Virus record (IMG/VR): IMGVR_UViG_3300028833_000067
Location: 1-64,000 of that record
DNA from: a virus
Lineage: Duplodnaviria; Caudoviricetes
DNA: 64,000 nucleotides
Strand: one strand, 5' to 3'
Position 1 is the stretch's first letter, and each line of letters begins with the position of its first letter. Shown here piece after piece: positions 1 through 27,273 of the stretch. The position numbers were made by a program, and so were the translations under genes. The notes below the pieces were generated by a model, which was not told where the DNA came from, did not search any database, and worked only from the letters and a program-made list of their open reading frames with translations.

Positions 1-66
1 AAAAAACATAAAGCTTATGGATATCATTGGAGATTTAAATCAGATTATGAGGAGGGAAATATTTAA
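1..66 (+). CDS. 3' end of upstream ORF, possibly NUMOD1/IENR1 tail of a homing endonuclease (partial)
   Basis: Frame 1 reads KKHKAYGYHWRFKSDYEEGNI*. 'AYGYHWRF' resembles the NUMOD1 terminal motif. TAA overlaps the gyrB ATG. Confidence 0.4.
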   Translation, partial: KKHKAYGYHWRFKSDYEEGNI

Positions 67-1931
67 TGTCTTATGAAGGAAAAGATATAGTAACGCTTTC
101 ACAAGGTAGAGCATTTAGAGAAAAGATTGGAATGTATCTTTCCGGAGATAGGCAGGAGGCAGTTAATTTAGGTTTGCGCGAACTTATTGTTAATACACAA
201 GATGAATATGAAGTTTATAAGCCTAAAAATCCCTTTCTAAAAATCATTATAGATACTAGTAAACGCATTATTAGCGTAGAAGACAACATGCGTGGTATTC
301 CTGTTGCAATACGTGAAGATGGTATGAACTCACTTACCGCCGCCATGTTGATAAATCATAGCGGTGGTAAACATGCTGGAACGGCTTATGAATCTTCTGT
401 TGGTATCAATGGATGTGGTAATAAAATTGTCAATCATACTGCTAAATGGCTTGAAGTTGAAGTACATCGAGATGGAAAAATTTATACACAACGCTTTGAA
501 AGTGATGATGAAGGCGCGCATGAGGTAACCGGTGTAATAGCTAAAAAAGGAGACTCTTCTACTGGTACAAAAATTACTTATTCGCCTGATGAAAAAGTTT
601 ATGGCAGTTATTTTATTGAACTTGATAAATTGCGCCAAATGTTAAGAGAATTATCTTATTTTTCAAAAGGACTTAAGATTTCACTTATAGTAGATAAAGC
701 ACCAGAAGAAATTTTTCAATCACAAAATGGTTTGATTGATGGATTGAGTAATAAAGATACTATTTCAAAACCATTTCACTATAATTATAAAACAGATGAT
801 TGTGAAGTTGAATTAGCATTACAGTGGGTAAAAAAACGAGGTCATATTAAAGGCTATGCTAATGGACTTTATATGCCAGATGGAGGTGCCTTTATTAGTG
901 GATTTAAATCTTCATTAACTCGTACTTTTAATAGTTTAGCTAATAGTAAATTTGATGGAGATACTATTCGTAATTTACTTGATGGCTTTGTTTCTGTTAA
1001 AGTTAAGGTGGGTCAATTTTCAAATCAAGCAAAGACTGCTTTAGCTAATCCTGAAGCTCGTACTGCTACTTCCGCAGCAATTAGTGAAGCACTAAAACAA
1101 TTTGTTAATGAACATAATAGTGAATTTAATGCAGTAGTAGCTACTATTGAACGATTAGAAAAAGCCGATGAGGCCGCAGAACGCGCGAGAAATGCAGTAC
1201 TCAATATGGAGAAGAAAGAAACTGAACAACGTAAGCGTAAGGTGACTTCTTCTGATAAGTTTAAAGATTGTGAAAAGCATGGCCCCGATTCTATGCTTAT
1301 TATTTGTGAAGGTAATTCTGCATTGGGCGGTTTGATGCCCGCGCGAGATGTAAAGACAGAAGCGCTATATGCCGTACGCGGTAAAGTAAAGAATCTAATG
1401 AAACATCCGCTAGAAGAATGTCTAGAAAATCAAGAAGTATCTGATATTATTATGGCACTTGGGTGTGGTATTCAAGAGCGCTATAATGAAAAGAAACTTA
1501 ATTATGGGAAAGTAGCGATTGCAACGGATGCTGATGTAGATGGATATTCTATTATGTGCCTAATTGCAACTCTCTTCTATGTTCTAATGCCTAAGTTTAT
1601 TGAAGAAGGTCGACTTGGTTGGCTGCGCGCGCCGCTTTACAGATTAAGTAAAGGCAAACAGCATGTGTATGCTTATGACGATGATGAACTTGCTGAATTA
1701 AAGAAAACTCATAATGGATGGGAACAGAGTCGCTACAAAGGGTTGGGCGAGATGGTGGCAGAAGATATGGAAGAGTCTATGCTACATCCTGTAAATCGGC
1801 GTTTGGATATTCTTACTATTAATGATGCTGAACTCGCGGCAGAATCACTAAAGATGCTAATGGGCACTGAAGTTGAGGGACGTCGAGACTTCTTGTTTGA
1901 TAATGTTGATTTTAATATAATTAATAGTTGA
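66..1931 (+). CDS. gyrB: Type IIA DNA topoisomerase subunit B (GyrB/ParE-like)
   Basis: GHKL motifs (ELIVN, DNMRGIP, HSGGK, GINGCG), TOPRIM motifs EGNSA, RGKVKN, TDADVDG, and RYKGLGEM. No TAG. Confidence 0.95.
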   Translation: MSYEGKDIVTLSQGRAFREKIGMYLSGDRQEAVNLGLRELIVNTQDEYEVYKPKNPFLKIIIDTSKRIISVEDNMRGIPVAIREDGMNSLTAAMLINHSGGKHAGTAYESSVGINGCGNKIVNHTAKWLEVEVHRDGKIYTQRFESDDEGAHEVTGVIAKKGDSSTGTKITYSPDEKVYGSYFIELDKLRQMLRELSYFSKGLKISLIVDKAPEEIFQSQNGLIDGLSNKDTISKPFHYNYKTDDCEVELALQWVKKRGHIKGYANGLYMPDGGAFISGFKSSLTRTFNSLANSKFDGDTIRNLLDGFVSVKVKVGQFSNQAKTALANPEARTATSAAISEALKQFVNEHNSEFNAVVATIERLEKADEAAERARNAVLNMEKKETEQRKRKVTSSDKFKDCEKHGPDSMLIICEGNSALGGLMPARDVKTEALYAVRGKVKNLMKHPLEECLENQEVSDIIMALGCGIQERYNEKKLNYGKVAIATDADVDGYSIMCLIATLFYVLMPKFIEEGRLGWLRAPLYRLSKGKQHVYAYDDDELAELKKTHNGWEQSRYKGLGEMVAEDMEESMLHPVNRRLDILTINDAELAAESLKMLMGTEVEGRRDFLFDNVDFNIINS

Positions 1932-1938
1932 GGTAAAT

Positions 1939-2286
1939 ATGGATATTGAAAATGCAAAAATTACAAATACACGTATTTCTATGGCCGATCATGGTTGCTT
2001 GACTTTTGATTTAATGCTTGAAGGTGACGGTTGGGGCTGTAGTTACGGTGGATATTGTATCGGTAATGGATACTTAGGTGCTAAAGAATTTACAGCAAGT
2101 TCGGGTAATGGACTCGTAGCTATGATGAAAATTATGGATACAGTTGGTGTAGAGCGCTGGGAAGATTTAGAGGGCAAATATATTCGGTGCAAGACAAATG
2201 GATTGGGCAGAACTATTGATGAAATTGGTAATTTGATAGAAGATAAATGGTTTAATATTCGTGAATTTTTTGCGAATAATAGTTGA
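1939..2286 (+). CDS. Hypothetical phage protein
   Basis: 115-aa ORF with GAGG SD. Confidence 0.75.
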   Translation: MDIENAKITNTRISMADHGCLTFDLMLEGDGWGCSYGGYCIGNGYLGAKEFTASSGNGLVAMMKIMDTVGVERWEDLEGKYIRCKTNGLGRTIDEIGNLIEDKWFNIREFFANNS

Positions 2287-2311
2287 CATTTTCTAAAATT
2301 TATGTTATAAT
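2283..2311 (+). promoter_or_regulatory. Sigma-A/70 promoter
   Basis: TTGACA-17 nt-TATAAT with TG extended -10. Confidence 0.9.
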
Positions 2312-2342
2312 AAATAAAAAGAAAGGAGTGAAAATATGAAAT

Positions 2343-2769: not shown

Positions 2770-4842
2770 ATGATAAAAAATGTAGACTTTCAAAAAACGA
2801 CTGAAGAAGCATTTTTAAAATATGCAGCATCAGTAGCACAAGAACGTGCACTACCCGATGTACGTGATATGCTAAAAATCGGTTTGCGGCAAGGTCTATA
2901 TGCTCAGTTTACAAATAAGCTCACTCATAAGGATAAGTTTCAGAAAGCACAAAAGAGCGTAGCTTCGGCCATGTCTCAATCATATGTTCATGGTGATGTA
3001 GCAATGTATGACGCTCTTATTCGTGCGGCCAGACCATGGTCAAGCCGCTATCCGCTAGAAGATGTACAAGGTAGTTATGGTAATCCTTCATCTCCCGATA
3101 GCCATGCGGCCGCTCGTTATGTAGAAATGAAGTCTAGTGAAGTTTCAGACTTCATGTTTGACGGCCTAAAGAAAAATGCCATTACAGAATGGTACTGGAA
3201 TTATGATGATTCAGAACAAATTCCATCTGTATTTCCTTCTATTGGATATTGGAATATTGTAAATGGTTGTCAAGGTATCGCGGTAGCAATGGCAACATCT
3301 GTACCTCAATTTAATCTTAAAGAGGTTAATGATGCTCTTATTAAAATTATTAAAGACCCTTCAGTCAGCTTTGATCAAATTTATTGTGCTCCTGACTTCG
3401 CTACAGGCGGTATTCTTACAAATGCTGCTGAAGTAAAAGATAGTTTACGAGTTGGGCGAGGTAAATCTATACGCTTGCGCGCGAAAATAACTTATCAGCC
3501 TAAAGAAAATATGCTTCAAGCAACAGAGCTTCCATATGGAGTATTTACTAATACTGTAATGGATCAGCTTGCATCACTGGTAAATGAAGACCCAGATTAT
3601 GGTATTGATAAGGTTATTGACCATACAAAGAAAACTGCTGATATTCGTATTTATCTTTCCAAAGGACAGAATCCAGATAAAATGATTGCCAAGTTATATC
3701 ATGATACTTCACTTGAAAATCATTTTTCTGTAAATATGATTCTTTTGGATAAAGGGCGATTCCCGAAAGTATTTGGTTGGCGCGAAGCATGCGATGCTTA
3801 TATTGCTCATATTAGAGAATGTAAGCGTAATATAATTGAATTTGATTTAAATAAAGCTCTCGCGCGCGAAAACATCATTAATGGCTTACTAATTGCCTTA
3901 GCTAATATTGATGATATCGTTGCTATTATCAAAGGTAGTGATAGTCCAAAGGATGCTGCCGCAGCATTGATAGCAAAATACAAATTCAATAAAGAGCAGG
4001 TTGATGCGATTTTAGCTATGAAACTATCCTCTCTATGCAGACTTGACGGCGTAAAATTAAATGATGAGCTAGCAGAACTTACTAGGTTTATAGCGGACTG
4101 TCGCTACCTATTATCTGAGCCTACTGCTTTAGATGAAAAATTAATTGAAATACTAAATTTAGTATCTCAAAAATTTGGTGACGCAAGACGAACGCAAATC
4201 ACTAATACGCTTGGTGATGAAGAAGAACCTGAAGAAATTGAAGAACAAGATATCGCTGTTATTTATAATGGAAAGACAATTAAGCTTGTTGAAAAAGGTA
4301 AAGAAGCTAAGTTCAAACAGACTATTATATACACAACAAATCTTGGCTCACTTACATTGATTACTGATGCAGGAAAAATGTATAATATTTCTCTTAGTAA
4401 GTTAAAGTTGGATAAAGAATATAAAATAACTGATGTAGCTGATATTGGAGGAGAACATCCGCGCCTACTGATTGATACTATGAGTTTTAATGCTTATCAG
4501 TCTTTAACTTGTATTACTAAGAAAGGTTTTATCAAGAAAAGCCATATTGGAGAATACGTTGCTCGCGCGAAAAAAGGTGTAGCAATTAACAAGATGGATG
4601 ATGATGATAGCATTGTAGAAATTATTCTAAGTAGCGATGATGATGATAGAGTAGTTGTTATTAGTAATAATGATTATTACAACTGTTATCCTCTAAGTGA
4701 TTTAAGTTATACTGGGCGTACAACCAAAGGTGTAAAAGCAATTAAGCTTAATACCGATGAATATGTAAAGGAAGCTAAGTGGGTAGGAGATAATACATAT
4801 AAAATTACCGGTCGAGCGGTAAAAGGAGTAAAGAATGGATAA
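2770..4842 (+). CDS. gyrA: Type IIA DNA topoisomerase subunit A (GyrA/ParC-like)
   Basis: ERALPDVRD, YVHGD, catalytic AAARY, GIAVAMAT, PDFATGG, short beta-pinwheel CTD (GRTTKGV). No TAG. Confidence 0.95.
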   Translation: MIKNVDFQKTTEEAFLKYAASVAQERALPDVRDMLKIGLRQGLYAQFTNKLTHKDKFQKAQKSVASAMSQSYVHGDVAMYDALIRAARPWSSRYPLEDVQGSYGNPSSPDSHAAARYVEMKSSEVSDFMFDGLKKNAITEWYWNYDDSEQIPSVFPSIGYWNIVNGCQGIAVAMATSVPQFNLKEVNDALIKIIKDPSVSFDQIYCAPDFATGGILTNAAEVKDSLRVGRGKSIRLRAKITYQPKENMLQATELPYGVFTNTVMDQLASLVNEDPDYGIDKVIDHTKKTADIRIYLSKGQNPDKMIAKLYHDTSLENHFSVNMILLDKGRFPKVFGWREACDAYIAHIRECKRNIIEFDLNKALARENIINGLLIALANIDDIVAIIKGSDSPKDAAAALIAKYKFNKEQVDAILAMKLSSLCRLDGVKLNDELAELTRFIADCRYLLSEPTALDEKLIEILNLVSQKFGDARRTQITNTLGDEEEPEEIEEQDIAVIYNGKTIKLVEKGKEAKFKQTIIYTTNLGSLTLITDAGKMYNISLSKLKLDKEYKITDVADIGGEHPRLLIDTMSFNAYQSLTCITKKGFIKKSHIGEYVARAKKGVAINKMDDDDSIVEIILSSDDDDRVVVISNNDYYNCYPLSDLSYTGRTTKGVKAIKLNTDEYVKEAKWVGDNTYKITGRAVKGVKNG

Positions 4843-5230
4843 GAAATATATAACATTATTTAAGGATTTGGCACAAGCGACTGCGGCTTCTGCCGAATCA
4901 GTAATGGAATATAATAGAAGCTAGAATGATGAAAAAGGCTTGTCCACTGCTACAATTATGCGTGATGATTTTCAAGCATTAGTAGATACAATTCAAGAAG
5001 CAGGTGATAATTATGCACCTACGCAACCTGAAGCTGCGCGATTATTAGTGGGCGCAATGATAATGGTAAATCAATTACAAGATAAAATAAATGCATTGCA
5101 TAAGGCTATTACTGGTTATTAGACAGATGTAATTCCAAAGCTACAAGAAATTGTAGACAAGGCGGGTTCAGATAATGAACTTGCGCGAAAAATGGCAAAT
5201 GAAAAATTTATTATTGAAGAAAAAGAATAA
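4835..5230 (+). CDS. Helical hypothetical protein (TAG=Gln), 131 aa
   Basis: ATG with AAGGAG SD. Two in-frame TAGs (4922, 5120) flank track fragment 4940-5122. Ends TAA. Confidence 0.75.
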
Positions 5231-5370: not shown

Positions 5371-5745
5371 ATGCATATGACAGTTAATAGTGAGCGCGTA
5401 CTAAATTTTTTAAAGGAACATTATGGTCAGGAATTTTCTAAGAATGAAATTAAGGATGCTCTAGGGATTTCTTTGAGCGCAGTTATTGGTAGTATTAATC
5501 CTCTTGAAAAGAATGGCTATACTCGTATTACTCGTACAGAAGTAGTTGAACTAGAACCAGCAACTGAGACTCGGAAAGCTAAGACTAAGGAAGTTAAGTA
5601 TCATACACTAACTGAAGCTGGCCTTGCCTACGATCCAGTAGCTGAAGAACAGGCTAAGCTCGCCGCAAAGCAGGCAGAAAAGGAACGCAAGGCCGCAGAA
5701 AAAGCAGCTGCGAAGGCCGCAAAGGAAGCAGAAGCAGAATTTTAA
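5371..5745 (+). CDS. Winged-helix DNA-binding protein with Lys/Ala-rich tail
   Basis: RVLNFLKEH...NEIKDALGISLSAVIGSINPLEKNGY...YHTLTEAG (wHTH pattern). Start may be 5377. Confidence 0.7.
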   Translation: MHMTVNSERVLNFLKEHYGQEFSKNEIKDALGISLSAVIGSINPLEKNGYTRITRTEVVELEPATETRKAKTKEVKYHTLTEAGLAYDPVAEEQAKLAAKQAEKERKAAEKAAAKAAKEAEAEF

Positions 5746-5781
5746 TTAAGAATAAATAACGAAGCAAAGGAGAAATGTAAA

Positions 5782-6684
5782 ATGAAAAGTATTAATATTC
5801 AGGCAACAAATAAACTAAATCTAGCAGGTACTCTAATGGATGTAACCTTCGGAGATGGTAAGCTATCTGATGGTCGTCCATATCAGCGTGCAACGGTAAC
5901 AGTTCGTGTTACTCAGACTTATGGCGGAAAGGAAGAAACTAGTGATGTACAGGTTGGTATGTTCGCAACTGAGTATACATCTACTGGTAAGAATAATCCT
6001 GCCTGGAAGAGCCTAAATGATCTAAAGCTAATGAAGACGGCACAGAATGTTGGTATTGATCATGCATCTCATGTACGTCTAACAGGCGCTTCTCTACAGG
6101 AAAATAACTTTGTATCTCGTACTGGACAGCTAATTAATGGTTGGCAGATTCGTGGTTCATTTATTAATGAGGCTCGTGTTGCAGATGTAGCATCTTTTGT
6201 AACTGATATCTTTATTATGGATATGCATGATGAAGTAGATCGTGAAGGTGATACTACAGGCCGTCTAGTGATTAAGGGTGGTATTGTACAGTATGGTGGA
6301 AAGCTCGACGTAGTTGAGTTTATTGTTGAAGCTCCCGATACTGTTGAATATATTTCTCGTAATTGGGAAACCAATGGTACAGTTACCGTTAAGGGCCGTA
6401 TTCGTGTTCTTTCTCAGGAAGAGGAAGTACAGTCTAGCGGCTGGGGTGAAGATGTACCAGAAACCACAACTAAGTTTGTGCGTGAGCTAATTATTACTAC
6501 TGGTGATGATGAATGTAAGGAAGAAGATTTTGCATATGATCCAGTAGAAATTAAGAAGGCATTTAATGAACGTAAGGCGGCAATTGAGCAGATGCAGATT
6601 AATGCTCGCGCTCATACTACAAAGCAGGGCGCTGGTAGTGCTAATGCCGCAGAAGCTTCCTCTAAGAAGTATGATTGGGAGTAA
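5782..6684 (+). CDS. Putative single-stranded DNA-binding protein (two OB-like halves)
   Basis: OB-type motifs (LAGTL, TVTVKGRI), acidic/aromatic C-terminus YDWE, next to a Sak4-like ATPase. Confidence 0.65.
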   Translation: MKSINIQATNKLNLAGTLMDVTFGDGKLSDGRPYQRATVTVRVTQTYGGKEETSDVQVGMFATEYTSTGKNNPAWKSLNDLKLMKTAQNVGIDHASHVRLTGASLQENNFVSRTGQLINGWQIRGSFINEARVADVASFVTDIFIMDMHDEVDREGDTTGRLVIKGGIVQYGGKLDVVEFIVEAPDTVEYISRNWETNGTVTVKGRIRVLSQEEEVQSSGWGEDVPETTTKFVRELIITTGDDECKEEDFAYDPVEIKKAFNERKAAIEQMQINARAHTTKQGAGSANAAEASSKKYDWE

Positions 6685-6708
6685 GGCGAAAGCCTTACTT
6701 TCCTTTTC
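6681..6708 (+). terminator. Intrinsic terminator/attenuator
   Basis: GTAAGGC-GAAA-GCCTTAC followed by a T-rich tract. Confidence 0.7.
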
Positions 6709-6728
6709 TACTAATGGAGGTGGATTAA

Positions 6729-7724
6729 ATGGCAGATATTGATATTTTCTCTCTTGAGCCTTCTAAGATTTCAAGAGACTTAAAGGGAAAGTTCCTATTA
6801 ATTTATGGTCAGCCGAAAACAGGAAAATCTACATTTGGTAGTCAGCTTCCTCGTGCACTATTTATGAATTTTGAACAAGGTACAAATGCTCTCGCTGGTA
6901 TTCGTAGTGCTCCTATTCTTCGTTGGACAGATGCAAAGAAAGTTCTAACACAACTTCGTAAGCCGCAGGCAAAAGAAATGTATGATTCAATTGTAGTAGA
7001 TACGGCCTCGATTGCTTGGCAGCTATGTGAGAAATATATTTGTCAGCGTGAAAATGTAGATAGTATTAGGGATGTGCCTTGGGGTCAAGGTTGGAATATG
7101 CTAAAGACAGAATTTTCTGAATTTTGGCGCGAAATTACACTATTAGGTTTTGGCATTTTATTTATTGCCCATAGTAAAGATAAACCAACCGAAATGCGTA
7201 ATGAAGATGGTGAAGCCATTACAGCGGTTTGTCCCGATCTACCAAATCAGTGTTATACAATTATTAATTCTATTGTAGATATTATTGGTTATCTACAAGT
7301 ACAGATGAATCCAGATGGAACTTCGGAAAGATATTTATACACACGGTCAACCCCATATGTATTTGCCGGTAGTCGTTATCAGTATCTTGCTCCAAAGATT
7401 AAATTTGGATATCAAGAATTAGTAGATGCAATTGGTGAAGCAATTGATAAAGCAGTGGAGCTTGATGGCGCGCAGGTAACTGATCATACAGAAATTGCAC
7501 AAATTAAAGATCGTCCATTTACTGAGGTAATGGCTGAAGCTAAAGCAATTTGGATTAAGTATCTTGAACTTGGCGGCGAAGAAAATAAAGATCAGCATTT
7601 GATGATTATGAAGGATATTATTAAGAAGGTATTCGGTTCTGAAGACTTTAAACTAAGTCAAGCAGTTCCTTCACAGTCTTCATTGGTTGAATACTTTATT
7701 GATGAAGTAAAACAGTTGATGTAA
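6729..7724 (+). CDS. AAA_24 / Sak4-like P-loop ATPase (recombinase)
   Basis: Walker A YGQPKTGKST, Walker B IVVDT, FIAH motif, WGQGW. Confidence 0.85.
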   Translation: MADIDIFSLEPSKISRDLKGKFLLIYGQPKTGKSTFGSQLPRALFMNFEQGTNALAGIRSAPILRWTDAKKVLTQLRKPQAKEMYDSIVVDTASIAWQLCEKYICQRENVDSIRDVPWGQGWNMLKTEFSEFWREITLLGFGILFIAHSKDKPTEMRNEDGEAITAVCPDLPNQCYTIINSIVDIIGYLQVQMNPDGTSERYLYTRSTPYVFAGSRYQYLAPKIKFGYQELVDAIGEAIDKAVELDGAQVTDHTEIAQIKDRPFTEVMAEAKAIWIKYLELGGEENKDQHLMIMKDIIKKVFGSEDFKLSQAVPSQSSLVEYFIDEVKQLM

Positions 7725-7730
7725 TATATA

Positions 7731-7753
7731 AAAGAGCCGAAAGGCTCTTTTTT
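7731..7753 (+). terminator. Intrinsic terminator
   Basis: AAAGAGCC-GAAA-GGCTCTTT plus T-run. Confidence 0.85.
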
Positions 7754-7755
7754 AT

Positions 7756-7784
7756 TTGACTTTTTCTGGAAATCATGGTATACT
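7756..7784 (+). promoter_or_regulatory. Sigma-A/70 promoter
   Basis: TTGACT-17 nt-TATACT with TG extension. Confidence 0.8.
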
Positions 7785-7815
7785 TTATACAGAATGAAAT
7801 ATAGGAAGTGATAGT

Positions 7816-8301
7816 ATGCAGATAACTAGAAAATGTGCTGGATGTAAAGGTGAATTTTATAAAGATGAATTAATTCAGTATGCATCTCTTAGTGGAAAAA
7901 CTACATATTGGTATTGTCCAACTTGTTATGAAGAAAAGTTAGCGCGAGAAAGATTCTCAAATAAAGTGTGTGAAATATTTGGAATTAAGAGTCCTGGGCC
8001 ACGTATTTGGACAGAGAGAAAACGTTTGAAAAATGAATATGGTTATACAGATGATGCAATTGTTGATTGTCTTGATTATATTTATAATGTATCAAAGAAA
8101 GACAAATTGTCTGAGTCATTGGCTTTGGTAGGACCACGTAGTATGGCAAATATGAAAGCTTGGCGTGCAGATAGACAGGCTCGCGCGAGTAGTATTGCGG
8201 CAGCAATTGCAAATACAGAGACACATGAATATGTAGTTCCTATTAAAGAAAACACTTCTAAGAAAAAAGAAATAAATCTTGATGATGCACTATTAGATTA
8301 A
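7816..8301 (+). CDS. Zinc-finger protein, possible helicase loader/replisome factor
   Basis: CAGC...CPTC, immediately upstream of the helicase. Confidence 0.55.
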   Translation: MQITRKCAGCKGEFYKDELIQYASLSGKTTYWYCPTCYEEKLARERFSNKVCEIFGIKSPGPRIWTERKRLKNEYGYTDDAIVDCLDYIYNVSKKDKLSESLALVGPRSMANMKAWRADRQARASSIAAAIANTETHEYVVPIKENTSKKKEINLDDALLD

Positions 8302-8318
8302 AGTAAAGGAGGAATTAT

Positions 8319-9920: not shown

Positions 9921-9925
9921 TATAA

Positions 9926-18477: not shown

Positions 18478-18658
18478 GTATGAAAGTTTAAGTGCGGCTT
18501 TAAAGAAAGAATTAAGTAAAATGGAACGTTCAGATAGGGTATTTGTCATTCGTGATGAAATCAAAGCTCTACAAAAAATGTGCCCTCATAATATGGGGCA
18601 TTATGATTTTTCTAATACCGATGAATGCCCCTACTGTGGGAAAAAATTTAAGGGGTGA
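18452..18658 (+). CDS. Small coiled-coil/zinc-finger protein
   Basis: CPH...CPYCG, AAGGAGG SD. Confidence 0.7.
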   Translation: MEVTDIRSKYESLSAALKKELSKMERSDRVFVIRDEIKALQKMCPHNMGHYDFSNTDECPYCGKKFKG

Positions 18659-18663
18659 TTCAT

Positions 18664-20466
18664 ATGAAATTACAAATTCGTAAACGTACTGGACAGTTAG
18701 TACCATTTGATAAAGAAAAAATTCAAACGGCTATATGTAAAGCTTGGCATGAAGTGTATCCTACAGAAACAGGTATGCCACCTTATGCTGCAGAGATAGC
18801 AAATGAGGTAGAGTATGTTGCTAATGAAATGGATGACCCACTTGGAGTAGAAGATATACAAGAATTAGTTGAAGACTATTTAACTGATTATGACTTAAAA
18901 GTTGGTAAAGCGTATATTAAGTATCGCTATAAACATGGTATTATGCGCGCAAATTCAACTGAATTTATTCGTGCTATTAGTGAAAAACTACAGGCATCTA
19001 ACGTGCAAAATCAAAATGCAAATATAGATGAACATTCATTTGGCGGCCGCGTCGGTGAAGCTTCTGATGAAATGATGAAGCAATATGCACTTGATTTTTG
19101 TATGTCTGAAATGGCTCGTAATAATCATTTAAATAATGAGATTTATATTCATGATTTAAGTGCTTATGCAGTAGGTATGCATAATTGTTTAAGTATTCCA
19201 TTTGATGATTTACTAGCTAAAGGATTTAACACTAGGCAAACGGATGTGCGCCCAGCTAATTCTATTAATACTGCTTTCCAGCTTGTGGCGGTTATATTCC
19301 AACTACAATCTTTAATGCAGTTTGGTGGCGTTAGCGCGACACATTTGGACTGGACGATGGTGCCTTATGTGAGGAAGAGTTTTTGGAAGCATTTTGATGA
19401 TGGAATTAAATACGTTGAAAATAAGGACGATTCAATAGAAGACATCAAAGAATATCATGGAGATTATATAAAAAATGAGAATCTCTCTATTAGCAAACCA
19501 ATTATTGGAAATCAAGATATTTCTAAAACTTATCCAAAAGCCTACAATTATGCAATGGATATGACTGAACGCGAACTTAAACAAGCCGTCGAAGGCATGT
19601 ATCATAACCTTAACACGCTCCAATCCAGAAGCGGAAATCAGCTGCCTTTCACATCCATTAATTATGGTACTTGTACACTACCTGAAGGTCGTATGGTAAT
19701 TAAGGCATTGCTAGAAGGCTCTATTAGGGGTGTAGGTAAATATCATAAAACTCCTATATTCCCATGTGGTATTTTCCAACTTGGAAAAGGCATTAATCGC
19801 GCGCCCGGTGATCCAAATTATGACTTATATCAACTTGCGCTTGAATCCACCGCTAAACGTATTTATCCCAATTATGCTAATATTGATTGGTCTGGAAATG
19901 CAGGATACGATCCAAACGATCCAACAACGTATTTCAGCACAATGGGATGCCGTACGGCAAATGGCGCGGACATAAATGCAGAACCAGGTGTTAATCCACA
20001 ACGTAAGGATGGCCGCGGAAATATATGTCCTGTTACTATTATTATGCCGACTATTGCAATGAATGCTAAATCAGCTTCAAATAATCCAAGAGGATGGGAT
20101 AGAGAAGAAGATTTAATTAATCATTTCTTACGTTGCTTAGATCAAAAGATACATGAGGCTAAAGATATGCTTCTTGAACGTTTTGAATGGATTTGTAAGC
20201 AGTCTCCTGCTTCTGCAAAGTTTATGTATGAAAATAATACGATGCTCGGTTATCATCCAGAAGAAGGAATTCGCTCAGCATTAAAGCATGGTACTATTGT
20301 TATCGGGCAGTTAGGACTTGCGGAAACGCTTCAAATCTTAATTGGCTGTGATCATACAACTGAAAAAGGAATGGAATTAGCTAAGAGGATTGAGCAACTA
20401 TTTAAAGATAGATGTGCAGAATTTAAAAAAGAATATAAATTAAACTTCGGAGTATATTACACTCCT
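18664..20466 (+). CDS. nrdD: Anaerobic (class III) ribonucleotide reductase, exon 1
   Basis: ATP-cone, YIHDL, HNC, QSRSGNQLPFTSIN, TPIFP, TMGCR, GRGN. Ends at GVYYTP. Confidence 0.95.
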
Positions 20467-21411
20467 AAACTATTCGGATTGGGAGTCGCGTAAGTAATTA
20501 CGTGAAAAAAGAACCCCATTAAACGGGCAATCGTAATAAGATGGTAAGAAAGCCTAAACCAAATAAATGGCAAGGTAATCCCGTAGGATAAAATTTTTAG
20601 TAAAACAGAAGTTTTCACTAAAGTTCATTAGAAGCTTCTCCTACTATTTATATAGAAGGAGGTGGTCAAAATGGCCCGCAGAAAAATGAATGATAAATTA
20701 ATTCACAAAACTGAAATTAAAGAAGAACTAAGACTTATAAAAGGTAGCCAAACCGATTATATTACTCCAACTGGTAATGTTTATAAAGATTATGGAAATG
20801 ATTTATTCTATCATAAATCAGTATTTCCAAATAAGAATAATGGATATATGTATTGTGGAATCACTTATCCAGAAGGATAGCGGCAGCGACGAGTACATAT
20901 TTTAGTCGCAGAAGCTTATATTCCTAATCCAAATAATTATCCAGTAGTAATGCATTTAGATAATGATAAGACTAATTTAAATGTTAATAACTTACGTTGG
21001 GGTACGGTCGCGGAAAATACACAAGCGGCATTTGATGATGGTTTGGCCGAAAACGATAAGAGTTGGGAAGATTCTCAATCAATTCATGTTTGTGTCTTTA
21101 ATATGCAACAAGAATTATTAAATAAATATGGTTCAGTGAGTGAAGCTTCTAGACAATTAGGAGTTACAAAAACTACAATACTCAATCAATGTAACCATAA
21201 TGTGAAAACTAAGCCAAGATGCGGATATTATTTCCGTTATTTATCTGAATATGAAACTAAAGGTTTTGTTCTCTAACGACTATCGAAAGCAATAAAAGAA
21301 GTGAGTAGAGTAGCACATAAGTGCGAAAGATGGGGCTCCTGTTGAAAAATTACAGGATGAAAATATAGTCTAATCCCCTTATGAAATATCGGGAAACCGA
21401 GGGTTCAAATG
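20467..21411 (+). ncRNA. Group I self-splicing intron in nrdD (945 nt)
   Basis: Exon ACTCCT pairs with IGS GGGAGT (U-G at splice site). P3 CCCCAT/ATGGGG, P4 ACGGG/CCCGT, P7 GACTA/TAGTC, terminal G at 21411. Splicing restores YYTP|AENLC. Confidence 0.93.
20671..21276 (+). CDS. Intron-encoded HNH homing endonuclease, I-HmuI-like (TAG=Gln), 201 aa
   Basis: One TAG (20878) joins two track fragments. RVHILVAEAYIPNP..PVVMHLDNDKTNLNVNNLRW, C-terminal NUMOD1 (SVSEASRQLG...GYYFRY). Confidence 0.9.
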
Positions 21412-21882
21412 GCCGAAAATCTTTGCTATACAGCCATGAAGAAATTTAAGGCAAAATACGGCGAAATTCCAAATGTTTCCGACCATGAATATTTTACAAA
21501 TAGTATTCATGTGCCAGTATGGCATGACATTTCCGTATTTGATAAGATTGATATTGAAAGTCAGCTAACTGGATATTCTAGCGCAGGATGCATTACATAT
21601 GTAGAAGTTCCTTCTGGTGTAAAGAATAACATTCCCGCACTTGAAACAATAGTAAATTACGCTATGGATCACGACATACCTTATTTCGCTTTGAACGTGC
21701 CGCTAGATATGTGTAATGACTGCGGTTATCAGGATGAAATCGGTGAAACCTGTCCTGAATGTGGTAGTAAGAACATTTCAAGGCTTAGACGTGTAACCGG
21801 ATATCTTACTGGTTCCTATAAAGATGCTTTCAACTGGGGCAAGCAGAAAGAAGTTGAAGCAAGGGTTAAGCATATACACTAA
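21412..21882 (+). CDS. nrdD: Class III ribonucleotide reductase, exon 2
   Basis: AENLC, YFTNSIHVP, CxxC/CxxC Zn site, glycyl-radical RRVTGYL. Confidence 0.95.
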   Translation, partial: AENLCYTAMKKFKAKYGEIPNVSDHEYFTNSIHVPVWHDISVFDKIDIESQLTGYSSAGCITYVEVPSGVKNNIPALETIVNYAMDHDIPYFALNVPLDMCNDCGYQDEIGETCPECGSKNISRLRRVTGYLTGSYKDAFNWGKQKEVEARVKHIH

Positions 21883-22382
21883 TGAGTAAGATTGCAGGAA
21901 TTTATTGGGATGATACCGCGGCCGCGCCCGGTATCTCCCTCTCAGTGTATTTTTCGGGATGTCATTTCCATTGCCCCGGATGTCATAATCCCGAAGCACA
22001 AGATTTTAATTATGGGCGTGAATATAACTTAGATATACGCCAAGAGATTATGCAGAAACTCAATAAAAATGGAGTTATGCGTACATTAAGTATTCTCGGT
22101 GGCGAGCCATTAGCCGATGAAAACTTAGAAGACGTAATGAATTTAATTGGCTGGTGTAAGTTAGATTATCCAGATTTAAAAATCTATTTATGGACAGGTT
22201 ATACAATGGAAGAATTAGAGAAGCGTGATAATCGTACTTTAGATCATATCCTACATAATATTACTTGCCTAATAGATGGCCGCTATGAACAGGATAAAAG
22301 AGATACGACATTGCCATTACGTGGCTCTTCTAATCAACGAATAATTAATATGGAGAAATATTATGAAGAAGGACATATATAA
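21882..22382 (+). CDS. nrdG: Anaerobic RNR activating enzyme (radical SAM)
   Basis: SGCHFHCPGCHN, LGGEP, WTGY, IDGRY, RGSSNQR. Confidence 0.96.
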   Translation: MSKIAGIYWDDTAAAPGISLSVYFSGCHFHCPGCHNPEAQDFNYGREYNLDIRQEIMQKLNKNGVMRTLSILGGEPLADENLEDVMNLIGWCKLDYPDLKIYLWTGYTMEELEKRDNRTLDHILHNITCLIDGRYEQDKRDTTLPLRGSSNQRIINMEKYYEEGHI

Positions 22383-22914
22383 GTCAATACTAGCTGGAAT
22401 GGCGATTGCATTAGGCTGCTGGATGTATCTAGCAGCTCCTAATGCAGTAGTTGGCGCTTTTTTATTTTCATGCGGATTACTTACAGTCCGTTTATATAAA
22501 TTGAATTTATTTACTGGTAAAATCCAATTTATGGTGACCAAGCGATATCCTTGGTATTTCTATTTAATAGTATTTCTTGGAAATATTATCGGAGTATCGC
22601 TAATGGCACTACTCGCGCACAATAATGCTTCTGCAGCAATAGCTACTACAAAAGTTGCTCAACCAATATGGGAAGCAATGTTTAAAGGAATAGGATGTGG
22701 TATGCTAATGTCTATAGCAACCTATGAAAAATCTCCCATATGGATGTGTATTCCATGTGTAATGGGTTTTATTCTTGGTGGTTTTAATCATTGCATTGCA
22801 GACGCATATTATATGATTGCTGCCGGTACAGTTGGAATTTCATTAATTGGAACTATTATTGGTAATTTATTTGGCGGCATTATTTTTAGTAATCTTATAG
22901 AATCAAATATTTGA
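22363..22914 (+). CDS. Formate/nitrite transporter (FNT, FocA-like) channel
   Basis: About six hydrophobic segments with SILAG, LFSCGL, LFTGK, GNIIG, GCGMLM, GFNHCIAD and GNLFGG, matching FNT motifs. Confidence 0.85.
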   Translation: MKKDIYKSILAGMAIALGCWMYLAAPNAVVGAFLFSCGLLTVRLYKLNLFTGKIQFMVTKRYPWYFYLIVFLGNIIGVSLMALLAHNNASAAIATTKVAQPIWEAMFKGIGCGMLMSIATYEKSPIWMCIPCVMGFILGGFNHCIADAYYMIAAGTVGISLIGTIIGNLFGGIIFSNLIESNI

Positions 22915-22939
22915 CAAACTCCCAGAAATCTGTTATAAT
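22911..22939 (+). promoter_or_regulatory. Sigma-A/70 promoter
   Basis: TTGACA-17 nt-TATAAT with TG extension. Confidence 0.9.
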
Positions 22940-22970
22940 AAAGTATAAAGAAATAAAGTGGTGATTGGAT

Positions 22971-23999
22971 GTGATATTTGCCCTTATTGGTTGCTTAATT
23001 ATAATTGGATTTCTGGGAGTTAAACTTTATTAGAAGAAAGTTATTGATACTCAATTAATGGATGAGTATTAGACATAGATACAAAAGGTTAAAGAACAAT
23101 TAGATTCTGACCAAGAGGTCTTGAACCAATATACTAGTAAATTACTAGACGTTCGTATAAAAGTTAATACTGAGCAGCAAAAGCTAACGGATTTATATAA
23201 TTAGTTAGATAGTGTTGAAACTAGCTTAAAAGATTCTCGTGATGAATATCATCATTTAATAAATGATAAGATGAAAGAAATAGACGAGACGATTGAAGAA
23301 CAGCGGCGAAAGCGCTAGCAAGAATTAGATTCTACATTAAAAGAAAAACAAAATTATTATAATAAATTACTTGAAGATACTATTAATCAATGTAATTTAT
23401 AGGATGAAACAATTAAAGAAGCTTCAGAAGCTAGATGGCGCGAAGCTATAGAACAAATGGAACGATATGATAAATCTATTGCAGAAGCTAAAGAACGATT
23501 TGAAAGTATTGAACGAACTTTAAAACAATATGATGCTGAATAGCAAGCTAAATTATTTTATACAATTCAATTACCTGATGAATATAAAGATGACATTGAA
23601 TTTTTGCTGACGACCGTATCTATGAAGGTATAGCATCCAGATATTATTTCTAAGCTAGTTTGGGCAGAATATGTTAAGCCAAACTTAGACGATACATTCA
23701 AACGAATTGAAATTAAAGCAGAGCCAGGGATTTATAAGATAACTAATATAAATACTGGTAAATGTTATATTGGAAAAAGTACTAATGTAAAGACGCGAAT
23801 TGCAGACCATTTCAAGTCTTCTATCGGCATTCGTTCAATAGCAGACCAAGTTGTGCATCATGCTATTCTTAAAGAAGGATTTTGGAACTGGGCAATTGAA
23901 GTTATTACGTATTGCGATAAAGAACGATTGAGTGAGTTAGAGAAATATTATATTACATTTTTTAAATCAATGGAGCATGGGTATAATAAAATATTATGA
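22971..23999 (+). CDS. Membrane-anchored coiled-coil GIY-YIG nuclease (TAG=Gln), 342 aa
   Basis: GTG start. TM (IFALIGCLIIIGFLGV), ~170-aa coiled coil, GIYKITN..TGKCYIGKS...RIADH...EKYYI...GYN. Eight in-frame TAGs. Absent from the track. Confidence 0.85.
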
Positions 24000-24754
24000 G
24001 TATACGAACAAATAAAATTGGAAAACAATTTGGTAAATTAATTGTTGACAGTATAAATAAGGAAAAATCAACAAGTAAGCATACATATTTTAATTGTCAT
24101 TGCCTATGCGGGAATCCAAATATTATTGTTAAACGAAGTGATAACTTAAATGCAAATAGCAACTGTGGTTGCGAACCTAATCATAGTGTATCTCAAAAAT
24201 CAATTGATGCTTTAGTTGCATATAGCAAACAATAGGAGACAAAACTGTTAGGTCAAAAATTTGGAAAATTAACAGTAATTGAATATATAGGAAAAATACC
24301 TGAGCAGTGTAATGCCAATGTCTGGAAATGCTAGTGTGATTGTGGAAATATTATGTATGCTACAACTAGTTCATTGAATAGTGGACATGTAAAAAGTTGT
24401 GGTTGTTTACGTTCTTATAAAGAAATGTTAATTAAAAAGTTCCTTAATGAATAGCATATTCCCTTTAAATAGGAATATTGTTTTTCAGACTTAAAAAATC
24501 CAGATACTGGATGCGCTTTAAGATATGATTTTGCTTTATTTAATAAAGAAGAACAATTAATAGGATTAATTGAGTATAATGGAGAATAGCATTATAATAA
24601 AAATTCTGCTTGGTATTCAAAAGATTATATAATAAGAGACCAATAGAAAATAAAATATTGCCAAAATAAAAAGATTGCTCTTTTAATATTAAATCAAGAT
24701 AATTTTTCATATGATTTAATTTTAGATTTTTATAATCGTAATGCTGGAGGATAA
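23996..24754 (+). mobile_element. Free-standing putative homing endonuclease: two Cys-rich repeats plus Vsr/DUF559-like nuclease (TAG=Gln), 252 aa
   Basis: FGKLxV...WKCQCDCG...KSCGC repeats, LRYDF...IEYNGEQHY...RDQQKIKYC. Six TAGs. Confidence 0.8.
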
Positions 24755-24755
24755 G

Positions 24756-25178
24756 ATGTTAGAAACGAATGAAATCAATGAGGTTCAAAGGCCAACTACA
24801 GAAACAAATCAACACTTATCATGTGATGAACTTATTGAAAGATATGCGTAGATACAAAATATAAGTATTGAACAAGCGAAAGAAGAAGTTAGCGCTCCTA
24901 CTGAAGAAGAAATCCTTAAAAAGATACAAAACAAGACAATTGAAAAAATTAATAGCACTAGAGTGCCAATGAACAGAGCGCAAAGGCGCGCATTAAAAAA
25001 GAAAATTGGTGCGAAAAAGTACGCTGAAATGATTGGAAGCGGAGATGTAGTTGAGACAGTTAGTGAAACTGCAAAAAAGCTTAATTATATTGATTTAATA
25101 CAAAAATTAAGAAAATTAAATGAAGAAAAAGAAAAGGAGATTGAAGAAAATGGCGAGACAACTACTGAAGACAACTGA
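24756..25178 (+). CDS. Hypothetical protein (TAG=Gln), 140 aa
   Basis: GGAGG SD, one TAG, NRAQRR motif. Extends track ORF 24963-25178. Confidence 0.7.
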
Positions 25179-25356
25179 TGTATGGATTACTGAGAGTGAA
25201 GAAGATGCTATGGAAATGATTGAAGATGCTAAAAATGGACAAACTGAAGGCGGCTATTCAGTAACTAAATCTGGTTATACAATGAAGCCTAAGAAACAAA
25301 AAGGAGAAATCCTTTATCTAGAATTTAAGGTAACAATCGAAAAAACTTTTGATTAA
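25150..25356 (+). CDS. Small hypothetical phage protein
   Basis: AAGGAG SD upstream of ATG 25150, MARQLLKTTD... Confidence 0.7.
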   Translation: MARQLLKTTDVWITESEEDAMEMIEDAKNGQTEGGYSVTKSGYTMKPKKQKGEILYLEFKVTIEKTFD

Positions 25357-25373
25357 ATTTGAGGTGAAATTAT

Positions 25374-26138
25374 ATGAATGAACTACAGGCGCTAATAGAA
25401 GCAATTTAGAAATTAGCTGATATGGAATTAACTGATGAAACATTAACAGAAATTACACGTAATGTAGATTCGCAATTTAGTAATGAAGTTGTTATGCAGT
25501 CTATTAATTAGATCGTTACTAATTTAAACGATCAGGGGCTAACAAAGAAAGAGGCTAAAGAAGCCGTCGAAACTCTTTGCTCAGTCTTAAATGAAATGGT
25601 TTATGAAGGAAAGGGATATACTGGTAATAAGAAAGTTCTTGTTGATACAATAATGGCTAAAGTTTTTAATATTTTTTATAAGGCTTTAGATAAGTATCAT
25701 TCTTATGCTATTGAACTTCCTATTCAATTAGAAGAAGGCGCGCAGGTGCCTACATATGCGCATGATAGTGATGCGGCCGCAGATATGTATGCAATGGAAG
25801 ACATTGAAATCTCAGCTCATACTAAGGGCGTACCAGTAAAAACTGGCGTACATATCCAATTACCAGAAGGCTGGGTCGCATTTATTCTACCTCGCTCTAG
25901 TATCGGCGCAAAAACTCCTCTGCGTCTTAGCAATAGCGCTGGTGTAATTGATAGCGGATATCGCGGTGAAGTTCGCGCGCTATATGATAATATTGGTGAT
26001 GAGCCCTATCAAATTCATAAGGGCGACCGCATTGCTCAGATGCTAGTAATGCCTTCTTATAGATTTAAGGCTAATGTAGTGGATTCTCTAGAGGATTCTG
26101 ATAGGGGCGAAGCTGGCTTCGGTTCTACAGGTGTATGA
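25374..26138 (+). CDS. dut: Trimeric dUTPase with N-terminal helical extension (TAG=Gln), 254 aa
   Basis: AAADM, PRSSIG, GVIDSGYRGE, GDRIAQ, RGEAGFGSTG. GAGGTG SD at 25361. Two TAGs in the extension. Confidence 0.92.
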
Positions 26139-26881
26139 GTACCATAAATATTTATTCTGTTTCTAATGCCTTAGAAGCAGAAGGTTGGAAACTCATAAGT
26201 GAAACCTATAAGAACCTCAAGACTCCACTTGAAATGGAATGTCCAGCTGGACACAAACAAGAATAGACTTTTGAGAACTGGCGAAAACATAAGATATGTG
26301 ATATATGTATGGCCGGTGATCCATATAAAGTTAAAAAAAATAATGTGCCCCCAAAGGGCACAGATACGTAGCGTATTTTAGCGCTAGACGCCGCAACAAG
26401 TGTAACGGGATATGCAATATACGATGATAAGATTTTAGTTAATTATGGAGTTTATAAAACTAGTTCAACCTTATCATTGTCAGAACGAATTAATTAGGTT
26501 AAAAATTGGCTTAAAGCCGCAATTAAAACTTGGGAACCAGACTTTATAGCTATGGAAAATATATAGCTTCAAAGCTATGGAGCGAAGTCAAATCAAGTAC
26601 AAGTAAAAACATTTTAGGCATTAGCTAATTTACAAGGAGTATTATTAGATACAATATTTGAAGCCTGTGTAGATCATGACTTAGTTTATCCGAGCGAATG
26701 GCGTTCATATTGTGGAATAAATGATGGAGATTAGCATAGAGATGCTAAAAAGAAGTAGGCTTAGGCTAAAGTAAAAATTTGGTACGGTATTGATTGTACT
26801 GAAGATGAATCTGACGCTATTTGTATTGGTAAATACTTTTGCGGCAAATTAAAAAAGAATGTTTGGGGTGAAGATATATGA
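26135..26881 (+). CDS. ruvC: RuvC-like Holliday junction resolvase with N-terminal Zn ribbon (TAG=Gln), 248 aa
   Basis: CPAGH..CDIC, RILALDAATSVTGYA, IAME, PSEWR, EDESDAICIG. Eight TAGs. Absent from the track. Confidence 0.85.
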
Positions 26882-27273
26882 TTAAGGTTAAGATTTCTGA
26901 TTTACTTAATGGATCAGAAGTTCTATAGAAGTTAGGAACTATGGAGTTTAAAGCAAAATTATCTTGGACTATTGCCAGACTATTAAAGGCGGCAGATGGC
27001 GAGATTTAGAATTTTAATGATGCGCGCATGGCGCTAATTAGAAAATATGGCGAGAAAGATGAAAACGGTGAACTTGTAACAGATGATACTGGGAATTGTA
27101 AAATTATGCAAGAGAAAATCACCGATTTTAGCAATGAACTTACTGAATTAATAAACAGTGAAGTTGAATTAAATGCCAATGAGATTGATATGAAGATGCT
27201 GGAAGATATTCCATTTATGCCAAGTGATATGGTGAAGTTAGAACCATTCGTTAATATGGATGAAAAGGAATAA
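26878..27273 (+). CDS. DUF1617-like hypothetical protein (TAG=Gln), 131 aa
   Basis: Two TAGs. KLSWTIARLLK...FNDARMALIRKYGEKDENG. Family assignment from memory. Confidence 0.6.

Follow-up and report, generated by a model that had tools for sequence, protein, structure and literature searches.

Why do neighboring genes in the replication arm of an amber-recoded phage differ in whether they contain in-frame TAG codons? The source phage is a rumen phage of 177 kb, of which we analyzed a stretch of 64,000 nucleotides (the window; coordinates refer to it unless stated otherwise). The initial annotation had read this arm as a program translated in two waves, with a code-neutral replisome and with nucleases and a regulator that await a code switch. 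We called ORFs with TAA and TGA as stops and TAG decoded as Gln, and compared them with roughly 70 distinct related IMG/VR contigs. In alignments of orthologues, Gln was the commonest partner of TAG columns (331 cases, followed by Lys with 108), an enrichment of 3.3- to 6-fold over background, and at residue 144 of the RuvC-type resolvase 42 orthologues have Gln where another 11 have TAG. By these sequence comparisons TAG is shown to stand for Gln in the phage genome, and large late ORFs of 2642 and 5232 aa require a code in which TAG is sense. The sole suppressor tRNA of the phage, tRNA(CUA), has a long variable arm, unusual for a Gln tRNA, and its gene (genome positions 140729 to 140991) is interrupted by a small group I intron of 175 nt; the gene is continuous in the relatives G001, G003, and G004. 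Neither a release factor gene nor a GlnRS gene was found in the phage. A host among the Bacillota is suggested by the SPbeta-like replication module together with the extended −10 promoters and the strong SD sequences.

With TAG read as Gln, the plus-strand arm from 66 to 27273 contains 29 ORFs. In-frame TAG is absent from 19 of these genes (6550 codons, of which 223 encode Gln), whereas 10 genes interleaved with them (2217 codons) contain 37 TAGs, such that TAG makes up 0/223 of the Gln-type codons in one set and 37/117 in the other. A permutation test upheld this heterogeneity (p ≤ 1e-5), and core replication genes chosen a priori (0/192) differed from four nucleases (23/61; Fisher p = 1.5e-16). 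Frequencies of TAG in the other two frames were equal between the classes (26.9 and 16.2 versus 27.1 and 16.2 per 1000 codons), so the exclusion is limited to in-frame TAG. The split follows the gene, not the position, as seen in the runs wHTH (4 TAGs), gyrA (0), hyp131 (2) and DnaE (0), hyp368 (3), NrdD (0).

The TAG-free genes were named by Pfam and PHROGs, and all genes and promoters of the arm described here lie on the plus strand. The gyrB gene (66 to 1931; Pfam DNA_gyraseB/Toprim) has 16 Gln codons and no TAG. A sigma-A-type promoter with an extended −10 (2283 to 2311, score 12/12) precedes a wHTH gene (2343 to 2765; HTH_36 with a DnaD/replication-initiator-like N-domain) and the TAG-free gyrA (2770 to 4842; Pfam DNA_topoisoIV); relatives without the wHTH gene have a similar promoter immediately ahead of gyrA. 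The four wHTH TAGs are at codons 3, 10, 74, and 137, and the first two could lie in the leader, as the start codon is uncertain. After hyp131 (4835 to 5230) comes a TAG-free block in the order of SPbeta yorF-yorK (5371 to 13032; promoters at 5235 and 7756, terminators at 6677 and 7730), with genes for a small HTH protein, a YorF-like protein (5782 to 6684), AAA_24/Sak4 (6729 to 7724), a YorH-like protein (7816 to 8301), DnaB (8319 to 9920), primase (9926 to 11047), a Zn-ribbon protein, and RecJ (11260 to 13032). An SSB gene annotated earlier could not be confirmed, the genes found there being the YorF-like and YorH-like ones. Another extended −10 promoter (13349 to 13377, 11/12), which scores at least 11/12 in 37 of 59 relatives, lies ahead of dnaE (YorL-like; 13403 to 17371), whose 1322 codons include 56 Gln codons and no TAG. 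The dnaE stop overlaps the start of hyp368 (TAATG; 17371 to 18477), which has a strong SD upstream and TAGs at codons 8, 10, and 367, its end reading TAG-NNN-TAA; the predicted structure (pLDDT 89) has a distant radical-SAM/B12-domain-like architecture with one invariant Cys only. Several small genes of the arm are likewise TAG-free.

The nrdD gene is split into two ORF pieces (18655 to 20493 and 21409 to 21882), both without TAG. Comparison with uninterrupted relatives set the boundary of exon 1 (18655 to 20466, with Pfam NRDD at positions 2 to 414), and exon 2 begins at 21412; the stretch from there to 22914, including nrdG (21882 to 22382) and a truncated FNT-like transporter gene (22363 to 22914), is TAG-free. 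The intervening 945 nt (20467 to 21411) are intron-like, exon 1 ending in T and the insert in G, and contain an ORF for an HNH/NUMOD endonuclease (20672 to 21276, listed from a GTG at 20662; 1 TAG); among the relatives compared, this endonuclease is confined to the present genome. The insert gave no Rfam match at the gathering score, and nrdD is contiguous in L024, L023, L007, and L001. Uninterrupted homologues, the U/G boundary, and the internal ORF mark the insert as a candidate group I intron.

The TAG-rich operon downstream is headed by a further extended −10, sigma-A-type promoter (22911 to 22939, 12/12) that scores at least 11/12 in 33 of 35 distinct relatives. TAG-bearing genes do stand, as had been noted, behind the same consensus class of promoter as the replisome genes. 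The first gene (22965 to 23999) encodes a GIY-YIG nuclease (PF01541 at residues 254 to 340, with 38.3 bits, above the cut-off of 22.6; PHROG homing endonuclease families) with an N-terminal hydrophobic helix, a long coiled coil, and a C-terminal catalytic domain, to which all 8 of its TAGs are N-terminal. It is the syntenic operon-first gene in 41 relatives and has neither the sporadic, mobile spread nor the N-terminal catalytic plus DNA-binding domain of the homing type; judged on these features, the nuclease is probably not of the homing type. Next are a free-standing HNH-family homing endonuclease gene (HNH252, 23996 to 24754; 6 TAGs; PHROGs 374/559/9084/7140), whose family occurs in several copies at varying positions among relatives, hyp145 (24741 to 25178; 1 TAG), and hyp78, which lies with hyp145 in the stretch 24741 to 25356 and has no TAG. 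A dUTPase gene with an N-terminal extension (25374 to 26138; strong SD at the annotated start) has 2 TAGs, at codons 12 and 46. The RuvC-type resolvase gene (26135 to 26881) encodes an N-terminal Zn-ribbon-like domain and has 8 TAGs, 6 of them within the RuvC domain, a profile-level identification (PF02075 at residues 81 to 219, with 26.6 bits, above the cut-off of 22.2); its tblastn matches include Enterococcus phage proteins annotated as Holliday junction resolvases. After DUF1617 (26878 to 27273; 2 TAGs), a GC-rich bidirectional terminator (27282 to 27304) separates the arm from the convergent, TAG-rich late arm. The TAG counts given previously for wHTH, GIY-YIG, HNH252, RuvC, dUTPase, and the intron HNH were exact, as was the absence of TAG from gyrB, gyrA, Sak4, helicase, primase, RecJ, dnaE, nrdD, nrdG, and FNT, but hyp368, hyp131, hyp145, and DUF1617 had been overlooked.

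The partition is conserved in related phages. No TAG was found in 65 gyrA orthologues (1247 Gln codons) or 60 gyrB orthologues; single TAGs occur in 6 of 65 DnaE orthologues, and 2 of 68 primase orthologues have TAG. TAG-bearing orthologues number 38 of 41 for GIY-YIG (88 distinct columns), 29 of 41 for hyp368 (46 columns), and 29 of 51 for RuvC (37 columns), the last including the distant lineages L034 and L071, in which RuvC is TAG-rich and the replisome TAG-free. So many distinct columns imply numerous independent gains, and because the standard-code sister phages G005 to G007 have the same genes with no TAG, the TAGs accumulated after recoding. TAG also occurs in 14 of 46 hyp131 orthologues and, among genes of relatives, in 17 of 21 hyp144 and 10 of 13 PIN-PhoH genes; ClpP and some uncharacterized proteins are further TAG-rich families there. 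A dividing line between "nucleases and a regulator" and the rest therefore does not hold, RecJ and RNase H being TAG-free. GIY-YIG and RuvC stand as conserved examples, but wHTH and the two HNH genes have a sporadic or mobile distribution, with no close orthologue of wHTH among 144 related loci, and the dUTPase case is weak (TAG in 5 of 51 orthologues). The TAGs of wHTH, HNH252, and the intron HNH may reflect a mere absence of constraint. Code neutrality of the replisome is likewise a strong tendency but not a rule: close relatives have internal TAGs in Sak4 (residue 39, 8 loci), RecJ, NrdD, DnaB, and DnaE, meaning that suppression must operate while such proteins are made. In 11 relatives DnaB has a TAG within its last few codons with TAA or TGA mostly 1 to 5 codons later (once 12), as expected for genes read under either code.

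We give a probability of roughly 60% to a TAG-gated delay of suppressor-dependent genes alongside code-neutral replication genes. On this reading, purifying selection strongly disfavors in-frame TAG in genes whose products are needed while the host translation apparatus is still unmodified. Gyrase, DnaB, primase, DnaE, and anaerobic RNR belong to this set, Sak4 and RecJ less strictly so, and they yield the identical protein under both codes. The remaining genes, including neighbors in the same sigma-A-driven operons, reach the TAG density of late genes (∼30 to 60% of Gln-type codons), so that their full-length products depend on suppressor activity. These products, among them the RuvC resolvase, hyp368, the membrane-anchored GIY-YIG nuclease, and the HNH homing endonucleases, would thus lag behind or be throttled relative to their operon neighbors until spliced, charged tRNA(CUA) outcompetes RF1. 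The TAGs in such genes may be favored by selection as a lock or may simply be tolerated. That the suppressor must first be spliced favors a delay, as does a 5′ skew of TAGs within the replication-arm genes (p = 0.002; weaker in family alignments), although that skew could come from misplaced starts, variable N termini, or AT-rich gene starts. The promoter ahead of the tRNA(CUA) gene is of the same class as those of the replication genes, so the suppressor may be present very early and the delay, if any, may be short. We infer the temporal lag, and timing rather than dose as the constraint.

A rather unlikely alternative is that TAG is avoided for reasons of dose or efficiency: if competition with RF1 makes TAG decoding poorer than that of CAA or CAG, proteins required abundantly or in precise quantity would shun TAG throughout infection, and low-abundance resolvase, nucleases, and homing endonucleases would tolerate it. 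Avoidance does track expression level too, since TAG is absent from strongly codon-biased late genes (53956 to 54957, 58762 to 59871, and 59878 to 60480; 0/32). Such genes shun TAG in all regions (0/32, 1/27, and 0/42), one of them encodes a virion structural protein, and the TAG fraction falls along the codon-bias axis (Spearman −0.39). CAG is already low in the TAG-rich families of standard-code relatives, and tolerance of TAG in relatives' Sak4, RecJ, and NrdD also fits. However, neither composition (GC3 included), general TAG avoidance, nor codon bias accounts for the partition. DnaB, primase, RecJ, and NrdG are as weakly biased as the TAG genes (with YorH, 0/54 versus 35/106 for low-bias TAG genes) and do not differ significantly in TTA, AAA, and ATA use (per gene, core replisome versus the arm's TAG genes, p = 0.095 to 0.29). 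Moreover, the catalytic subunits of a replisome are not abundant proteins, giant virion proteins are evidently produced despite their 56 and 125 TAGs, and the absence of TAG from 125 gyrA/gyrB orthologues is too absolute for an efficiency preference.

It is less probable that the pattern is one of history without regulatory effect, in which TAG genes are selfish or horizontal cassettes from other amber-recoded phages and replication genes are kept TAG-free by exchange with standard-code relatives. The clade does mix standard-code and recoded members, and gyrB is only ∼55% identical between phages with 94%-identical DnaE, pointing to swapped modules; wHTH and both HNH genes have the distribution expected of cassettes. 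GIY-YIG, RuvC, and hyp368, on the other hand, belong to the syntenic core of the clade and have TAGs in many independent columns, the TAG-free standard-code orthologues indicate that TAGs arose in place, and TAG-free gyrases in mostly recoded genomes argue for ongoing selection, not recent arrival. That TAG is an ordinary stop within the arm, in pseudogenes or miscalled frames, is highly improbable and was rejected: table 11 breaks up the TAG-bearing genes and some 5′ TAGs could precede the true start (wHTH; an example in L029), but Pfam/PHROG domains run across TAGs, full-length orthologues at 50 to 63% identity have Gln opposite TAG, hyp368 is predicted confidently as a single protein, and the large late ORFs need the same code.

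The TAG-gated delay can be set beside known systems. SPbeta of Bacillus subtilis uses the standard code. The window shares its yorF-yorL order (YorF-like, AAA_24, YorH-like, DnaB-type helicase, primase, RecJ-like exonuclease, DnaE-type polymerase), but here the module lies within an amber-recoded genome with TAG-bearing genes interleaved. Ivanova et al. reportedly described, in 2014, phages that recode a stop codon and switch codes in the course of infection. Stop-codon-recoded phages were analyzed by Yutin et al. 2021 (PMC7886860), and Borges et al. (10.1101/2021.08.26.457843) proposed a code-switch model in which in-frame stops delay translation until the switch, read a recoded group I intron endonuclease within an early gene likewise, and called recoding of replication machinery "variable"; gating beyond late and lysis genes, previously put forward as an extension, thus has precedent. 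Like those phages, the present one reads TAG as Gln via a phage suppressor tRNA, has close standard-code relatives, and combines standard-code-compatible replication genes with heavily recoded structural genes. It differs in its rumen lineage with an SPbeta-like yorF-yorL replisome and gyrase, in a gene-by-gene split inside single sigma-A operons tested across the related contigs, in a proposed gated set to which a RuvC resolvase and a membrane-anchored, conserved GIY-YIG nuclease belong, and in a suppressor tRNA gene interrupted by a group I intron. In T4, I-TevI, I-TevII (in nrdD), and mobE lie in early or middle units and are not translated until late, through an RBS-sequestering RNA hairpin and a late promoter, with a rationale that includes safeguarding intron splicing (Edgell, Gibb and Belfort 2010, PMC2988022). 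By analogy, I-TevII would be the direct counterpart of the nrdD insert endonuclease, with the hairpin replaced by in-frame amber codons that the suppressor tRNA would lift.

Taken together, the partition is real, gene specific, and conserved, and fits the published TAG-based delay of translation. It refines the published code-switch idea without adding a new principle.

The phage genome is a single contig of 176,887 bp, 98% complete by CheckV; the window takes up its first 64 kb. The replication and nucleotide-metabolism arm (66-27273, + strand) runs on upstream past the contig ends (genome 155-177 kb) and is closed by a bidirectional terminator at 27282-27304. The convergent arm opposite carries structural-type genes, including two giant ORFs (2642 and 5232 codons) that stay open only if TAG encodes an amino acid; they contain 56 and 125 in-frame TAGs, respectively. 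With Pfam, PHROGs and a protein atlas we recognized a replication block in SPbeta yorF-yorL order (YorF-like, AAA_24/Sak4, YorH-like, DnaB, primase, RecJ and DnaE; window 5782-17371), flanked by gyrase, anaerobic RNR and other genes; as far as gene order can tell, this points to a Bacillota host. No near matches were found among GenBank phages, where the best RuvC matches were to phAss-1 and Enterococcus/Enterocloster phages at ∼33% identity.

The initial annotation had proposed that the replisome is code-neutral and that interleaved nucleases and a regulator are amber-gated, giving two waves of translation. When we recounted with TAG as Gln, its six per-gene TAG counts proved exact: wHTH (2343-2765), 4; GIY-YIG (22965-23999), 8; HNH252, a free-standing HNH-family endonuclease gene (23996-24754), 6; RuvC (26135-26881), 8; dUTPase (25374-26138), 2; and the HNH in the nrdD insert (20662-21276), 1. 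Four further TAG genes were absent from it, namely, hyp368 (17371-18477; 3 TAGs), hyp131 (4835-5230; 2), hyp145 (24741-25178; 1) and DUF1617 (26878-27273; 2). The replication genes that it listed as TAG-free indeed have no in-frame TAG, but no SSB was identified among them. The arm thus comprises 19 TAG-free genes (6550 codons, 223 CAA/CAG, 0 TAG) and 10 TAG-bearing genes (2217 codons; 37 TAG, 70 CAA, 10 CAG). TAG was heterogeneous among the arm genes (permutation p<=1e-5), and core replication genes, set beforehand, had 0/192 compared to 23/61 in four nucleases (Fisher p=1.5e-16). TAG sites match mostly Gln in aligned orthologues, one being an otherwise invariant Gln of the RuvC domain. The proposed dividing line of nucleases and a regulator was not borne out, as RecJ and RNase H are TAG-free. 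In the upstream part of the arm, a 683-codon ORF (genome 165559-167610, or 7559-9610 of locus L080) has 19 TAGs, and its flanking RNA ligase, phosphoesterase, RNase H and DNA ligase genes have none; no orthologue of this ORF was found in the fetched loci.

We then weighed other explanations for this partition. Expression-linked codon bias, which the initial annotation had named as a potential refuter, accounts for part of the split but not for its core. In all regions, genes that are strongly biased and CAG-only lack TAG, including three late-arm genes (53956-54957, 58762-59871 and 59878-60480, - strand) whose Gln codons are CAG with hardly any CAA and whose GC is higher. One of the three is a virion structural protein; together they are probably the virion proteins with the highest expression, and they indicate that avoidance of TAG follows expression level as well. 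DnaB, primase, RecJ, NrdG and YorH, however, have codon bias as low as that of the TAG genes, yet score 0/54 versus 35/106, and per-gene use of TTA, AAA and ATA did not differ significantly between the core replisome and the arm's TAG genes; TAG is thus specifically excluded. That TAG simply replaced CAG is only partly right: CAG is already low in the TAG-rich families of standard-code relatives, and TAG+CAG goes up on recoding, from ∼0.2 to ∼0.5. Late-like codon usage in general, considered for the TAG genes of the arm, reached significance per codon; per gene it was weak and did not separate them significantly from the core replisome. AT content, the other refuter named, fails because GC3 overlaps between the two classes; primase, the AT-richest replication gene (GC3 0.176), has 13 CAA and 0 TAG. 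General avoidance of the TAG trinucleotide and operon position were both ruled out, since off-frame TAG (other two frames) is equally common in both gene classes, so that exclusion is confined to in-frame TAG, and TAG counts are non-monotonic along operons.

Conservation of the partition was assessed in 144 related IMG/VR loci retrieved via DnaE and GyrB, which represent only ∼70 distinct contigs because several came from both queries. In-frame TAGs were counted within the aligned part of each orthologue, with duplicates removed. The partition was kept across these contigs, a check that the initial annotation had proposed. TAG was present in 0/65 orthologues of gyrA (1247 Gln codons), 0/60 of gyrB, 2/68 of primase and 6/65 of DnaE, the last with a single TAG apiece; for DnaB, 5/71 had an internal TAG, and 11 others had a TAG among their final few codons, followed shortly after by TAA/TGA, which is the expected look of a gene read under both codes. 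On the other side were GIY-YIG (38/41 orthologues; TAG makes up 34% of Gln-type codons), RuvC (29/51; 31%), hyp368 (29/41; 19%), hyp144 (17/21) and PIN-PhoH (10/13). Distinct TAG alignment columns numbered 88 for GIY-YIG, 37 for RuvC and 46 for hyp368, and TAG was therefore gained independently many times. In two distant lineages (L034 and L071), RuvC is likewise TAG-rich and the replisome TAG-free. A TAG-free replisome is a rule with exceptions: genuine internal TAGs occur in relatives, in Sak4 (residue 39, eight loci), RecJ, NrdD, DnaB and DnaE. The near-terminal arrangement also occurs in hyp368 (18469-18477), and there, as in DnaB of the 11 relatives, nearly the same protein results under either code; loci listed for the DnaB case are L001, L005, L008, L010, L012, L026, L028, L057 and L067.

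Three sister phages, 72% identical in DnaE, keep to the standard code throughout, and their versions of the same genes are devoid of TAG. In these sisters (G005, G006 and G007; loci L029, L048, L043 and L155-L157), RuvC, GIY-YIG and a late gene contained no TAG. Together with the recoded phages they provide a natural before-and-after pair for the spread of recoding through a genome.

The TAG genes are of several kinds. GIY-YIG is a conserved core gene and does not encode a typical homing endonuclease. Its product has a hydrophobic N-terminal helix, a ∼200-residue coiled coil and, at the C terminus, the catalytic domain, an unusual architecture that is possibly that of a membrane-tethered nuclease. 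The nrdD insert (20467-21411) is a 945-nt, intron-like element with an HNH/NUMOD endonuclease inside; the HNH is unique to this genome, and nrdD is uninterrupted in relatives. HNH252 is one of a multicopy, mobile family, copies of which lie directly on either side of gyrB in many relatives (L087, L088, L092, L113, L117, L126 and L133; ∼9000-13000). Between these same genomes gyrB is far more divergent than DnaE, a pattern that suggests endonuclease-driven module exchange. The dUTPase is nearly TAG-free in relatives, and wHTH has no close orthologue; its regulatory role is putative, and its first two TAGs are possibly in a leader rather than in coding sequence. The hyp368 model is confident (pLDDT 89) and has a two-domain architecture distantly like B12-binding/radical-SAM enzymes (VIA-align against the latter: Z 10.2, rmsd 5.7 Å), with no Foldseek match at E<=0.001. 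A canonical radical-SAM enzyme was ruled out because the cysteine triad is missing and a single Cys is invariant.

Perfect extended -10 sigma-A-type promoters stand directly before wHTH (2283) and GIY-YIG (22911), and near-perfect ones precede dnaE (13403-17371) and other units. Of 35 distinct relatives, 33 retain the GIY-YIG promoter, which is conserved as often as the dnaE promoter. No promoter of their own was found for RuvC, hyp368 or dUTPase; the hyp368 start overlaps the dnaE stop codon, with a strong SD in front and TAG at codons 8 and 10. Sigma-A-type promoters of the genome fall into two classes. In one class, a TTTGGATGTAT.ACATCCAAA palindrome stands 8-9 nt before the -35 element; these promoters cluster at 68.5-91 kb, where they probably serve immediate-early genes. 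Promoters of the other class lack the palindrome and usually have a T-rich spacer, and transcription of the replication arm, tRNA region and suppressor tRNA starts from them.

No tRNA(CUA) was found by ARAGORN or Rfam without introns. Allowing introns revealed one, the sole amber suppressor (genome 140729-140991, or 2729-2991 of locus L079), with a long variable arm and encoded CCA, downstream of a sigma-A-type promoter (140252) and a cow-rumen-4 RNA (140285-140351). It is interrupted after U35 by a 175-nt insert that is missing at the homologous place in three relatives (G001, G003 and G004). From P/Q/R/S-like core elements, compared by eye with the classical consensus, and from its absence in relatives, we take the insert to be group I-like; neither it nor the nrdD insert matched an Rfam group I intron. 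Neither a release factor nor a GlnRS gene was found in the genome as part of a switch.

The likeliest mechanism is that selection purges TAG from genes that need translation before, or independently of, suppressor activity. The remaining genes climb to late-gene TAG density, therefore depend on the suppressor, and would lag, or be throttled, relative to their own operon neighbours. A stronger reading is that the TAGs are a selected translational lock rather than a passive by-product: within host-sigma-A-driven replication operons, they would hold back DNA-cutting enzymes (the RuvC resolvase, the membrane-anchored GIY-YIG nuclease and the homing endonucleases) while replication gets started, and a suppressor tRNA that would first have to self-splice would open the lock. 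We consider this unlikely, at roughly one chance in five. TAGs are skewed to the 5' end of genes, which hints at a selected lock and has other explanations, and the hyp368 TAGs at codons 8 and 10, with translational coupling to dnaE, would fit one. A resolvase is needed at packaging of concatemers, and its delay makes biological sense. By analogy with T4, delay would also make sense for intron and free-standing endonucleases; in T4, hairpins at the RBS delay homing endonucleases (PMC2988022), whereas the block proposed here is an in-frame TAG.

Standard-code early genes combined with a code switch are an already published model (10.1101/2021.08.26.457843; PMC7886860). The proposed extension of amber gating to DNA-cutting functions has a precedent, in that a recoded intron endonuclease within an early gene and "variably" recoded replication machinery were described before (10.1101/2021.08.26.457843). 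What is new here is another lineage and a finer, conserved, gene-by-gene map, not a new principle. In practice, replication modules of such phages need gene calling with TAG as Gln, even where most genes look standard. The code-switch hypothesis gains a sharper gene-by-gene prediction, that proteins from one mRNA, such as DnaE and hyp368 or wHTH and gyrA (2770-4842), differ in time or greatly in amount. The map also yields a conserved list of functions affordable as suppressor-dependent (resolvase, GIY-YIG nuclease, PIN-PhoH and homing endonucleases) and of those that are not (gyrase, DnaE, primase and DnaB). If the lock were real, an RNA-level timer would stand in for the middle/late transcription switches of other phages.
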